Assembly (NCBI GenBank): GCA_902795275.1
Contig: CADBKQ010000003.1
Coordinates: forward strand, 69,912-133,911
DNA length: 64,000 nt
Origin: an uncultured Eubacteriales bacterium
Lineage (GTDB): Bacteria > Bacillota > Clostridia > Christensenellales > Aristaeellaceae
Direction of reading: 5' to 3'
Position 1 is the first letter of the stretch; every line of letters begins with the position of its first letter. Below the pieces are notes generated by a model. It saw only the letters and a list, made by a program, of their open reading frames with translations. It was not told where the DNA came from and made no database searches. Below, piece by piece: positions 31,126-40,183 of the stretch. Both the position numbers and the translations under genes were made by a program.

Positions 31126-31615
31126 ATACGGCGACCATTGCTGCCTCTATCCCGGCAGCTTCGACCCCGTGACCCTGGGCCACCTGGACATCATCCGCCG
31201 GGCCGCCGCGATCTTTGACACCGTGGTGGTGGGCGTGCTGCACAACCCGGACAAGCAGGGCCTTTTCTCCGTGGGGCAGCGGGTGGACATGCTGGAAAGA
31301 GCCTGCGCGGAGATTCCCAACGTGAAGATCATCGCCTGGCCCGGCCTGCTGGCCGACCTCACCCGGGAAACCGGCATCCGCGCGGTGGTGCGGGGCGTGC
31401 GGAATGCCGCCGACCTGGACAGCGAAAGCACCATGGCCCACATCAACGGCCGGCTTGACCCCGGCCTGGAAACCCTGTTCCTGCCCGCGTCGCCCGAGCG
31501 CGCGGACGTGAGCGCCAGCATGGTGCGCCAATTAGCCTCCTTCGGTGCGGACATTTCATCCTTCGTTCCCTCTCAGGTTTTGCCGGATATTCTGGCAGCC
31601 TTTTCAAAATCATGA
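31115..31615 (+). CDS. coaD: Pantetheine-phosphate adenylyltransferase
   Basis: YPGSFDPVTLGHLDIIRRA (H/TxGH) motif. It follows rsmD in the conserved order. Confidence 0.93.
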   Translation: MSCKYGDHCCLYPGSFDPVTLGHLDIIRRAAAIFDTVVVGVLHNPDKQGLFSVGQRVDMLERACAEIPNVKIIAWPGLLADLTRETGIRAVVRGVRNAADLDSESTMAHINGRLDPGLETLFLPASPERADVSASMVRQLASFGADISSFVPSQVLPDILAAFSKS

Positions 31616-31639
31616 ACCATAAAAAAGGAGGATTTAACC

Positions 31640-32266
31640 ATGTCTACCAATCGCCTGATGACCTTTGAACTGCTGGACCGTATGGAGCAGCTCCTTTCGG
31701 AAGCCTGGGCCGTTCCCCTGACCAAGAAATTCATGCTGGACAAGGAAGAATTCTCCAGCCTGATGCGCCGCCTGGAAGAAAGCATTCCCGTGGACGTGCA
31801 GAACGCCAAGACCATCATCGACCAGGAAGAAAACATCATCAACGAAAGCAACCGCATCGCCGAGGAAACCACCCGCACCGCCAGCGCCGAAGCGCAGGCG
31901 ACGGTGGACAACGCCAAGCAGGAAGCCAACGCCATGGTGAACGACGCCCAGGCCCGCGCCGCCGAAACCCTGCGCACCTCCACCGACCAGGCCAACGCCA
32001 TGGTCGCCGACGCTCAGACCCGCGCCAACGCGCTGGTGGCTGACGCCCAGGCCCGCGCCGCCCAGATGGTGGCCGACAGCGAAATTGTGGCCCGCGCCCA
32101 GGCCCAGGCCCAGGAAATGCTGGAAAGCGCCCACCGGGACTGCGAAGCCTACACCGCCCGGGTGCACGACTCCATCAACCAGCTCATGGAGCAGCTGGAC
32201 ATCAGCGTGAACCAGCAGGCCGAGGCCGTCCGCGCCCTGCGGCAGCAGTACGCCAACCCGCAGTGA
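31640..32266 (+). CDS. Ala/Gln-rich coiled-coil protein, function unknown
   Basis: 208-aa ORF with internal repeats (ANAMVNDAQARAA / ANAMVADAQTRAN / ALVADAQARAA). GGAGG RBS at 31625-31629. Confidence 0.6.
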   Translation: MSTNRLMTFELLDRMEQLLSEAWAVPLTKKFMLDKEEFSSLMRRLEESIPVDVQNAKTIIDQEENIINESNRIAEETTRTASAEAQATVDNAKQEANAMVNDAQARAAETLRTSTDQANAMVADAQTRANALVADAQARAAQMVADSEIVARAQAQAQEMLESAHRDCEAYTARVHDSINQLMEQLDISVNQQAEAVRALRQQYANPQ

Positions 32267-32275
32267 GACAAGACA

Positions 32276-32603
32276 ATAGGGATTAGGGATTAGGGATTAG
32301 GGATTTGTTATAGAGTACAGAGTTATATGGTCGATCAATTCTGGATTCCGCAGCATGTTCACTCTATCATCTGATACTATTCTCAAATCAAACAAGCTAA
32401 TCAGAATCATTCAGGTAACGTTGTCATTCTTGTCATCCTGAGCGCGCTCGGCCGCGAAGGACCTCCCTCGTTTATGACCCCAGAAGCAGGGGAGGTCCTT
32501 CGACTCCGCTTCGCTCCGCTCAGGATGACAGCGAAGCGCGGATGACAGAACTGTTCCCTCGTATTTGCTGTATGAACTCTGCACTCTGTACTCTGTACTC
32601 TTC
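32276..32603. repeat. Composite repeat locus F: orphan TAGGGAT array plus an AGAGTRC-class element with an expanded loop
   Basis: aatagggattagggattagggattagggattt (32276-32306) has no inverted partner. It is followed by the short arm agagtacagagtt (32312-32324). The matching far arm is gaactctgcactctgtactctgtactcttc (32574-32603). Confidence 0.85.
32432..32529. repeat. Nested palindrome (GTCATCCTGAGCG...CGCTCAGGATGAC) inside the loop of locus F
   Basis: Outer 13-bp inverted repeat at 32432-32444 and 32517-32529. Inner 12-bp inverted repeat gaaggacctccc (32456-32467) pairs with gggaggtccttc (32490-32501). Confidence 0.85.
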
Positions 32604-32647
32604 TCTCCGCCATAGGCGCTGATGATTGATTTTTTTGTGAAAATCCC

Positions 32648-32676
32648 TTGACATCCGGCGGCCTGATGGATATACT
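32648..32676 (+). promoter_or_regulatory. Sigma-A-type promoter of rpmH
   Basis: TTGACA (32648-32653), a 17-nt spacer, then TATACT (32671-32676). Confidence 0.7.
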
Positions 32677-32763
32677 ATAATGGCTGTTTTGTGGTGTATT
32701 GCCTCATTACGCGCAGAATAATGCCATCTGGCATTTCGGATTTTAAAAGGAGTTGTTGTTGTC

Positions 32764-32898
32764 ATGAAACGTACCTATCAGCCCAAGAAACGCCAGCGCA
32801 ATAAGGTGCATGGTTTCCGTGCCCGCATGAGCACCAAAAACGGCCGCAAGGTGCTGGCCCGCCGCCGCAATCGTGGCCGCAAGGAGCTGACGGTCTGA
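32764..32898 (+). CDS. rpmH: 50S ribosomal protein L34
   Basis: My translation gives [44 protein letters not shown] (44 aa). It is below the ORF-track length cut-off. AAGGAG RBS. Confidence 0.97.
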
Positions 32899-33043
32899 TC
32901 CGCCGCTCCCCTCTTTCTTGCATGGCTTGGCCCGCCCCGCGCTTGCCAGAGAGCATGGATTCGTGGGGCGGGTTTGCTGTTATGCCCGGAAATCTCCGCG
33001 GCGCGGCGGCAAACGATTATTGATTCGATTCGGCTGGGCAGAT

Positions 33044-33382
33044 ATGGAAAAGCAGTATCGTCTGAGGAAGAACGGGCAGTTTCGCTACGTCTATAAAAAA
33101 GGCAAGGGCGGGGCGTGCCGCGAAATGTCGGTGGGATTTGCGAAGGGATCAAAGCTGCTGGTCGGCTTTTCCGTGAGCAAAAAGATCGGCAACGCCGTGA
33201 CCCGCAACAAGGTCAGGCGGCGGCTGCGGGAAGCGTTCCGGGCGGAATTGCCTTCTCTTCGGACGGGCCTGTACGTGGTCACGGCGCGGGAGCCGGCCGC
33301 GGAGGCTGATTTTGCCCGCATTTCCCAGTCGCTTCGCTATTTGCTGCGCAAGCAGGGCCTGTATCGGGATGGCATCAAATGA
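33044..33382 (+). CDS. rnpA: Ribonuclease P protein component
   Basis: [21 protein letters not shown]... with the RNR motif ([19 protein letters not shown]). The track start at 32918 is an extension. Confidence 0.9.
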
Positions 33383-33627
33383 AACGTGTCTTGCTTTCCG
33401 TCATCCGTTTTTACCGGCGCAGGGTGAGTCCCGGGCTTCCCCGCGCCTGCCGGTTCTATCCCACCTGTTCCGAATACGCCGAGGAAGCGATCCGGCGCTT
33501 CGGCGCGGTCCGGGGCGGACAGCTGGCCGCAAGGCGGATCCTTCGCTGCCATCCTTTCGCCAGAGGCGGGTATGACCCCGTGCCCGAGGCGCCCAGTGCT
33601 ATCATTAGGAGGGACGAAAATCCTTGA
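33379..33627 (+). CDS. yidD: Membrane protein insertion efficiency factor YidD
   Basis: [34 protein letters not shown] signature. Confidence 0.92.
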
Positions 33628-39157: not shown

Positions 39158-40183
39158 ATGGCAGCCACGATGAAAGACATTGCCCGGGAAACGGGGCTGG
39201 GATTGGCGACCATTTCCAAATATTTTAACGGCGGCACGGTGAAAGAAAACAACCGCCTGCTGATCGAGGCGGCGGTGAAGAAGCTGCATTACGTGCCCAA
39301 CGAAATGGCCCGCAGCCTGAAAACCAAGCAATCCCGCGTGATCGGCGTGGTGATCCCGGAGCTGAGCAACGCCTTTATCACGTCCATCATTTCCGCCATG
39401 GAGGACATTCTTCGCAAGAAGGACTACGCCATCGTGGTCTGCGACTGCCGCAGCGACCCCAGGCACGAAAAGGAAGCGGTGGAATTTCTGCTGCACCGGC
39501 GGGTGGACGGCCTGATCAACATGGCCACCGACCCCACGGGCAGGCACCTGAAAGCCGCCCTGGACGCCGACATCCCCATCCTGCTGGTGGACAGGCTGAT
39601 CGACTCCCTGCGGGGCAGAACCAGCGCCGTGGTGATCGACAACGCCCACGCCGCGGGCCAGGCGGTCCGGAAGCTGACCGGCCTGGGCCACCGGAAAATC
39701 GGCCTGGTGCTGGGCAGCCCGCATTTGTATACCACGAACTGCCGCCTGACCGGGTACCTGGACGCGCTGAAGGAAGCGGGCATCGTGCCCTCCGAAGGCT
39801 TTATCCGCTACGGGGACTACACCCTGGACGGGGGCTACCAGGCCGTTCAAAGCCTGATGGCCATGGAGGATCGGCCCACGGCCCTGTTCGTGACCAACTT
39901 TGAAATGACCCTGGGCGCCATGCTGGCCCTGAACCAGGGCGGCGTCCGGGTGCCGGAGGATTTGTCGGTCATCGGCTTTGACAAGCTGGAGCTGTTCGGC
40001 GCCATCTTTCCCGACCTGACCCTCATCCGCCAGCCGCAATTGAGCATCGGCCGGGAGAGCGCCAACCTGATGCTGGATCTATTGAACAACCGGGACAGCG
40101 CCAGCCACCGCATCGTGACCCTGAGCACCGAGCTGACGGAAGGGAAATCCGTCCGCGCTTTCACGGAGCAGGCGACGGTGTGA
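39158..40183 (+). CDS. LacI-family transcriptional regulator
   Basis: MAATMKDIARETGLGLATISKYFNGG HTH with a GGAGGAGG RBS and a PBP-type-I effector domain. The track start at 39083 is an extension. Confidence 0.9.
   Translation: MAATMKDIARETGLGLATISKYFNGGTVKENNRLLIEAAVKKLHYVPNEMARSLKTKQSRVIGVVIPELSNAFITSIISAMEDILRKKDYAIVVCDCRSDPRHEKEAVEFLLHRRVDGLINMATDPTGRHLKAALDADIPILLVDRLIDSLRGRTSAVVIDNAHAAGQAVRKLTGLGHRKIGLVLGSPHLYTTNCRLTGYLDALKEAGIVPSEGFIRYGDYTLDGGYQAVQSLMAMEDRPTALFVTNFEMTLGAMLALNQGGVRVPEDLSVIGFDKLELFGAIFPDLTLIRQPQLSIGRESANLMLDLLNNRDSASHRIVTLSTELTEGKSVRAFTEQATV

Follow-up and report, generated by a model that had tools for sequence, protein, structure and literature searches.

The sequence between the coaD operon and rpmH in the genome of an uncultured Eubacteriales bacterium raises the question how a lone TAGGGAT array, the two arms of an AGAGTRC element and the 250 nt between these arms came to stand side by side. 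The window analysed here is the whole stretch of 64,000 nucleotides, C3:69912-133911 of a metagenome-assembled genome (MAG) of 3.12 Mb with 58% GC in 58 contigs. A stretch of about 330 bases 5' of rpmH consists of three stacked non-coding repeats. This variable zone is limited on the left by the 3' end of a gene for a 208-aa protein and on the right by the rpmH promoter region. The features are, in positions of the window:

31640 to 32266, plus strand: gene of the 208-aa repeat-rich protein, the final gene of the upstream (coaD) operon, taken from the list of open reading frames; stop codon TGA at 32264-32266
32277 to 32304, plus strand: TAGGGAT x4, a perfect, one-sided heptamer array which begins 10 nt past the stop of the 208-aa gene
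32305 to 32311, plus strand: 7-nt linker TTGTTAT (TCGCTAT in the sister species G017)
32312 to 32324, plus strand: shortened left arm of the AGAGTRC element (AGAGTAC AGAGTT), the final 6 nt of which are also the start of the core
32319 to 32372, plus strand: AGAGTRC core of the subfamily core-alpha, 54 nt, complete, including ggattccg (32343-32350)
32374 to 32573, plus strand: inserted copy of the repeat MITE-3, 200 nt, including ttcaggtaa (32410-32418)
32432 to 32529, no strand: interior palindrome of MITE-3, 98 nt, made of inverted GTCATCCTGAGCG...GAAGGACC hairpin modules
32574 to 32601, minus strand: right arm of the AGAGTRC element, 4 units (GAACTCT GCACTCT GTACTCT GTACTCT), orthologous to the right arm of G017, G023 and G013
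32648 to 32676, plus strand: rpmH promoter TTGACA-17-TATACT, kept in all relatives including those without a heptamer element
32764 to 32898, plus strand: rpmH (ribosomal protein L34), followed by rnpA, yidD and yidC

The two-unit patterns TAGGGATTAGGGAT and AGAGTRCAGAGTRC occur 13 and 14 times in the window, where 0.01 and 0.04 matches are expected, respectively. None of the three ORFs of at least 57 aa inside or overlapping the locus has a Pfam match, and no Pfam family was found for the 208-aa protein. We regard it as highly probable that three unrelated non-coding repeats have piled up here, within the one part of the gap that is dispensable. That part would extend from the stop codon of the 208-aa gene to about 45 nt upstream of the -35 box of rpmH.

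The genome is rich in hairpin repeats with arms of tandem 7-nt units and cores of 45-65 nt. Counted over the genome, convergent pairs number about 115 for TAGGGAW, 44 for AAGTTCT, 35 for AGAGTRC (with spacers of typically 50-57 nt), 27 for AGGAGGT and 12 for GGAGTKA. Since the cores are conserved within each unit class, the classes behave as element families. One-sided arrays, defined as those with no convergent partner within 600 nt, account for 37 of the 214 TAGGGAW arrays that have four or more units (17%). Seven of 98 AGAGTRC arrays have a TAGGGAW or TAGGCAW array as immediate outer neighbour. At two composite loci, C15:92400-92875 and C6:1850-2055, both outer TAGGGAW arms surround an AGAGTRC half-element, and a recurrent linker, TAGGAGAACG, joins the TAGGGAW and AGAGTRC arrays. 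A common 7-nt register of the TAGGGAT and AGAGTRC arrays, as it would result from one growing array, was considered and rejected, because the register is not constant: the linker has 7 nt at the rpmH locus and 10 nt (TAGGAGAACG) or 1 nt at other composite loci.

The orthologous gap from the 208-aa gene to rpmH was recovered from congeners. The 208-aa gene lies upstream of the locus in all relatives compared, and the promoter-proximal AAAATCCCTTGACA is common to all congeners compared. In G017, the flanks of which are about 93% identical to the window, one TAGGCAT and TCGCTAT precede a plain AGAGTRC element, the arms of which have 4 units each and the core 52 nt. G023 and G013 (flanks about 89% and 87% identical, respectively) contain an AGAGTRC element that agrees with that of G017 in arm units, core length and core type, but no TAGGGAT, and their right arm is followed by T7. 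A different heptamer class occupies the site in G004. In G024 and G005 the site contains GC hairpins with U-tracts behind them in place of a heptamer element, and G006 and G011 are also devoid of heptamer elements. The comparison of this region, from the coaD-side gene to rpmH, had been suggested by the initial annotation, and it revealed the plain AGAGTRC element in three sister species. An AGAGTRC foldback with arms of tandem 7-nt units would accordingly have been present at the site before the split from G017, G023 and G013.

The core of the element has a different history than its position, a point absent from the initial annotation. Positions 32319-32372 are about 85% identical to the paralogs C32:5423 and C8:57512 (alignment z of at least 11) and 86-89% identical to at least eight copies in G017. 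The likeness to the orthologous G017 core is weak (z of about 4), while the cores of G017, G023 and G013 give z of about 5 against one another. In these alignments the core differs from the orthologous core yet matches the paralogs, which points to its replacement by the core of another subfamily. The core ends in the canonical ...ATCATCT, after which every other copy begins its right arm, and relative to the core-alpha paralogs 7 nt (CAGATTT) are absent at the junction of left arm and core. The lineage of this strain would thus have exchanged its 54-nt core for core-alpha, a subfamily that is currently multi-copy. The most likely route of the exchange would be recombination that uses the repetitive arms or the flanks as homology.

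The 200 nt that separate this core from the right arm belong to a dispersed repeat. MITE-3 occurs 9 to 11 times in the genome, in surroundings that are unrelated to one another, and copies homologous to that at the locus along its length were found at C1:223866, C1:146454, C34:17209, C24:19160, C13:63593, C4:67814, C4:264963 and C20:40685. The family carries terminal inverted repeats, ATACTATTCTCAAATAAAACA on the left and its complement ATTTGCGAATAGGAT on the right. The copy at the locus has ATACTATTCTCAAATCAAACAAGC as its left inverted end, and its right end reads ...TTTGCTGT/AT and is internally short by about 17 nt, for which a second event is needed. The interior of the family is a variable stack of GTCATCCTGAGCG-type hairpins. 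The boundary of the insert is ambiguous by one G (32373 or 32574). This single G is all that could be taken for a target-site duplication, and the flanks of the other copies show no consistent duplication either. Deletion of 32374-32573 restores a canonical AGAGTRC element, ...CACTCTATCATCT being joined directly to GAACTCTGCACTCT, as it is seen in paralogs and in the copies of G017. MITE-3 is absent from the site in G017, G023 and G013, and also from two of the haplotypes described below (C and D).

The initial annotation had assumed an insertion of one element into another, and this assumption is borne out by an interior that is homologous to at least eight dispersed copies and is missing from the sister species and haplotype C. 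Relatives in which the 250-nt interior is ancestral, which would have spoken against an insertion, were not encountered. The annotated palindrome at 32432-32529 is real; it is the interior of MITE-3 and requires no separate insertion. On the comparisons made here, the 200-nt interior is an insertion of a dispersed repeat that relatives lack. MITE-3, 200 nt long and with inverted ends, is inserted exactly at the junction of core and right arm and pushes the arms 250 nt apart. For the RNA of the whole stretch a fold of -133 kcal/mol (z = -4.8) was calculated, in which the short left arm pairs with the right arm across the insert. From the distribution of its copies we infer that it moved by transposition.

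No donor locus with core-alpha joined to MITE-3 was found elsewhere in this genome. The conspecific contigs contain neither a haplotype with core-alpha and without MITE-3 nor a clean empty site, and in the JGI metagenome contigs there were no matches to core-alpha joined directly to the right arm, the expected empty site, nor to the TAGGGAT/AGAGTAC junction. The order in which we describe the core swap and the MITE-3 insertion is not meant as an order of events; a joint arrival would be compatible as well.

Several further observations concern MITE-3. Another copy, at C1:146416-146729, splits the left arm of an AGAGTRC element, and in G016 a related element follows ...ATTATCATCT, with a junction sequence identical to that at the rpmH locus. 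These shared junctions may reflect a target preference. An autonomous element with MITE-3 ends was not found in this genome, and none of the 7 matches in a scan of 185,579 species genomes revealed a transposase with such ends. In that scan a single pair of MITE-3 ends lies 5 kb apart, with MerR and ABC-transporter genes in between, and in some genomes the end motif coincides partly with a promoter -10-like sequence. Elements of about 190 nt with MITE-3 inverted ends and a wholly different interior of stacked GC hairpins are present in a sheep-rumen Oscillospiraceae MAG (L051 and L052), and in L052 the element end overlaps a promoter-like site, TTGACA-17-TATACT. A fourth repeat (ATTGCTCCACCAATTTAATCGTGAATT...) lies inside the right end of the MITE-3 copies at C4:67618-67814, C20:40675-41000 and C4:264700-264979 and is a further layer of nesting.

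Conspecific contigs from independent rumen metagenomes, recognized by an identical 208-aa protein or RnpA and with flanks 98.8-100% identical to the window, show how much the site varies within the species. Haplotype A comprises the window, L023 and L026 and has four TAGGGAT units, a left arm of 2 units, core-alpha, MITE-3 and a right arm of 4 units; L026, which ends inside the TAGGGAT array and shows four units only, was assigned to it on that basis. Haplotype B (L022, L025, L042) has three TAGGGAT units, a left arm of 4 units as in G017, G023 and G013, core-alpha, MITE-3 and a right arm of 3 units. L029 has five TAGGGAT units, a left arm of 4 units and the junction of core-alpha and MITE-3, and the contig ends inside MITE-3. 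Haplotype C (L021) combines four TAGGGAT units and arms of 2 (left) and 4 (right) units with a G017-type core and no MITE-3. In haplotype D (L024, L027, L030, L041, L044) no TAGGGAT is present and a GGAGTKA-class foldback with a variable number of units is found instead, although the flanks are 98.8% identical to the window. In L044 this foldback has an extra symmetric outer pair of arms.

Sister species and haplotypes together indicate that the plain AGAGTRC element is ancestral for the species. Judged by this comparison, three changes are derived and recent: the exchange of the core, the insertion of MITE-3 and the replacement of the element in haplotype D. The suggestion that the repeats were recently active holds, as conspecific strains differ at the site. 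Haplotype B, which has its interior in common with A, shares with C a T-to-A difference in the T-run between right arm and promoter, which G017 lacks; this hints at recombination between haplotypes. The TAGGGAT array and both AGAGTRC arms differ by whole units between strains, and slippage or unequal exchange would be the probable cause of this drift.

Within flanks that diverge by at most 1.2%, the changes of small bacterial repeats can be followed at one orthologous site with unusual clarity, as in a natural time series. Growth of an array, shortening and lengthening of arms, replacement of a core, a mobile insertion and the wholesale replacement of one class by another are all visible there. 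The repeats are currently dynamic in rumen populations, and the site is useful for strain typing.

Most likely, the composite is neutral or selfish DNA with a single plausible physiological side-effect: the long hairpins would take the place of the intrinsic terminator of more distant relatives. It could also be argued that the composite is a selected terminator or insulator, or an RNA-processing site, which separates the coaD operon from rpmH, either through long double-stranded RNA stems as targets of RNase III, in the manner of rRNA intervening sequences, or through a G-quadruplex of UAGGGAU x4. Distant relatives (G024, G005) indeed have a GC hairpin and a U-run at this position, the species with foldbacks have no other terminator, and in G023 and G013 the right arm is directly followed by T7. 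For the hairpin of G023 a folding energy of -49 kcal/mol (z = -7.9) was obtained. Moreover, a TAGGGAW-armed element elsewhere in the genome carries a gene for a 23S-rRNA-IVS protein, the intervening sequence of Coxiella has variable GACAGAT heptamers at an RNase III site (PMC4990558), and TAGGGAT x4 would, by sequence only, fit the G3-N4 quadruplex pattern of GGGAATC repeats (PMC4692102). However, with flanks that are at least 98.8% identical the site exists in four structurally different versions, including one of a different heptamer class. In this genome no T-run comes after the right arm, and a simple scan for terminators called no site within 32150-32800. A search of 31500-33500 against Rfam gave no credible match, as no family reached an E-value below 0.39. 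A selected function of this kind is therefore quite unlikely. A terminator or processing role as such is only a possibility, suggested by the terminator at this position in distant relatives and by the T7 after the foldbacks of G023 and G013.

A further thought is that the heptamer-armed foldbacks of these rumen Clostridia are gene-less relatives of S23p IVS-like cassettes, which home to terminator hairpins at the ends of genes, take over the role of terminator or RNase III processing site and swap their cores via arm homology, with the site upstream of rpmH as a natural exchange hotspot. We consider this unlikely. If true, the site would be a hotspot of cassette exchange and not a passive dump for repeats.

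In contrast to a pile-up of separate repeats, the initial annotation had proposed that the loop of the AGAGTRC element grew from about 60 to about 250 nt with its landmarks kept, and that the TAGGGAT array is what remains of a full foldback after the loss of its partner arm. This is very unlikely to be the case. The loop did not expand, as the 54-nt core is intact and contiguous and the insert sits at the junction of core and right arm. Two strings had been taken as landmarks kept from the loop of another element, copy A, in which ggattccg is found at 862-869 and ttcaggtaa at 877-885. The first of them reflects true homology of the cores. The second lies inside MITE-3 and matches copy A by coincidence, since it owes its form to a private A-to-G change in this MITE-3 copy; at that site in the left end, six of the eight other genomic copies read CATTCAAGTAACG. 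By a rough estimate about 0.05 such 9-mer matches are expected by chance between stretches of 57 nt and 250 nt.

As annotated, the TAGGGAT array has no inverted partner. No ATCCCTA array is present between 18620 and 49757 of the window, so that the array is truly one-sided. It could be regarded as a remnant because 83% of the TAGGGAW arrays with at least four units are paired, because the linker TTGTTAT shares 6 of 7 bases with TAGTTAT, the usual first 7 nt of TAGGGAW cores, and because composites with both outer TAGGGAW arms do exist (C15 and C6, see above). The loss of a partner arm, however, finds no counterpart in any relative: none of the five conspecific haplotypes and none of four congeners, G017, G023 and G013 among them, has a partner. 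The array is a length polymorphism. Alignment of the left junction shows a pure length difference of 0, 1, 3, 4 or 5 units with the rest alignable; conspecific strains have 3, 4 or 5 TAGGGAT units, G017 has a single TAGGCAT, and G023 and G013 have no TAGGGAT, with a unit-like AAGGGTT at this position in G023. The sequence AATCCCT beside the -35 box of rpmH (about 32643-32649) was considered as the lost partner arm and rejected, because AAAATCCCTTGACA is conserved in relatives without any heptamer element. AAAATCCC, directly 5' of the rpmH promoter, is likewise conserved promoter-proximal sequence and not a TAGGGAT remnant.

Within the pile-up of three repeats, the TAGGGAT array would be a one-sided heptamer microsatellite. 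It may have grown in situ from a single TAGGCAT- or AAGGGTT-like unit, or it may have been patched in from a TAGGGAW element; the likeness of TTGTTAT to the core start fits a partial TAGGGAW element equally well as growth in situ. Single ("orphan") arrays hence need not be decayed hairpins.

An assembly artefact, i.e. a chimeric join of repeats in a MAG of 58 contigs in which repeats are prone to mis-assembly, can practically be dismissed, since the arrangement is base-for-base identical in the independent assembly L023 and near-identical in at least four further samples (L022, L025, L042, L029), and both unique flanks are attached in independent assemblies.

The pile-up has parallels in known systems. 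Short non-coding elements with inverted ends that are dispersed, vary in presence between strains and insert into one another are familiar from bacteria as Correia/NEMIS, RUP and BOX elements, and the FB foldback elements of Drosophila have arms of tandem short repeats. Unlike for nested MITEs and foldbacks, no transposase partner and no clear target duplication were found for either of the two elements at the rpmH locus, and the arms are made of 7-nt units.

The closest likeness in arm structure is to the GGGAATC heptamers of Xanthomonas campestris and X. axonopodis, which form inverted pairs and single arrays (Rehm et al. 2015, PMC4692102). There, 70-75 pairs plus single arrays were counted, with lengths that differ between species, and the same study gives GGGGA(T/C)T as the heptamer of Nostoc. 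The AGAGTRC element shares with the Xanthomonas repeats the convergent arms of tandem 7-nt units around a short spacer and the dispersed, mostly intergenic copies, and a single array such as TAGGGAT is also a state known from Xanthomonas. The G-rich unit of Xanthomonas is one base off the TAGGGAA variant found here. In both systems the number of units varies between related genomes (here 1, 3, 4 or 5 for TAGGGAT, 2 or 4 for the left arm and 3 or 4 for the right arm). Unlike in Xanthomonas, the repeat type is not always kept at the site, as haplotype D and G004 have other classes; at least five unit classes occur (TAGGGAW, AGAGTRC, AAGTTCT, GGAGTKA, AGGAGGT), each with its own 45-65-nt core; and in this host, a rumen Clostridia MAG, one element is interrupted by another repeat.

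A second likeness is to the S23p (PF05635) type of intervening sequence in 23S rRNA, a long-stem hairpin with strain-variable tandem heptamers in the stem, as described for the GACAGAT heptamers at the RNase III site of the Coxiella burnetii 23S rRNA IVS (PMC4990558). About 41 kb upstream of the locus and outside of the window, at C3:28421-28846, a PF05635 gene of the 23S-rRNA-IVS/S23p type (about 117 aa, 139 bits) takes up all the space that separates a TAGGGAW x5 arm from its inverted counterpart. This element is a gene-carrying version of the heptamer-armed hairpins and a lead for the heptamer family, not for the rpmH locus. Unlike the S23p intervening sequences, the rpmH locus lies outside of rRNA and contains no S23p gene, and RNase III processing is hypothetical there. 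The locus is an ordinary, though well-documented, hotspot of selfish-repeat turnover with no sign of a new kind of system, and nothing fundamental is altered, as nested selfish repeats and variable heptamer arrays are already known.

The hairpins inside MITE-3 point to one more group. The motif GTCATYCTGAGC occurs 70 times in the genome, compared to about 0.7 occurrences expected by our calculation. Ssn-related motif (SRM)/NTS hairpins were described to bracket small GIY-YIG single-strand nucleases (Chenal et al. 2025, PMC11893778). The interior palindrome of MITE-3 resembles them in that it consists of two GTCAT-led hairpins in inverted orientation. At C14:39880-40331 and C14:46790-47281 the genome contains two small GIY-YIG ORFs, each of about 97-100 aa and with a single domain. 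The first, an ORF of about 97 aa with a PF01541 match at C14:40014-40232, is bracketed in an Ssn-like arrangement by inverted GTCATCCCGA hairpin motifs at 39880 and 40322, which are of one type with those in the MITE-3 palindrome; its membership in the Ssn subfamily is putative. Unlike the published hairpins, the pair at the rpmH locus is gene-less and embedded in a MITE with inverted ends of its own, and the published degenerate SRM pattern (HGTCWY N0-2 YYVSBRH N0-5 WNVSBRG N0-2 RNCYNB) has no match in 32251-32660. Genome-wide, 25 matches to this pattern compare to 31-45 in shuffled genomes and thus indicate no enrichment.

Two minor features flank the variable zone. The 208-aa gene contains an in-frame tandem repeat of 33 nt (11 aa) at 31991-32077 of the window. 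At 32720-32745, just 5' of the ribosome-binding site of rpmH, a hairpin AATGCCATCTGGCATT is followed by a U-rich run. This leader hairpin has no match in Rfam, is kept genus-wide and is scored as terminator-like by the scan in G024 (L006); a role as leader or attenuator for L34 is conceivable.
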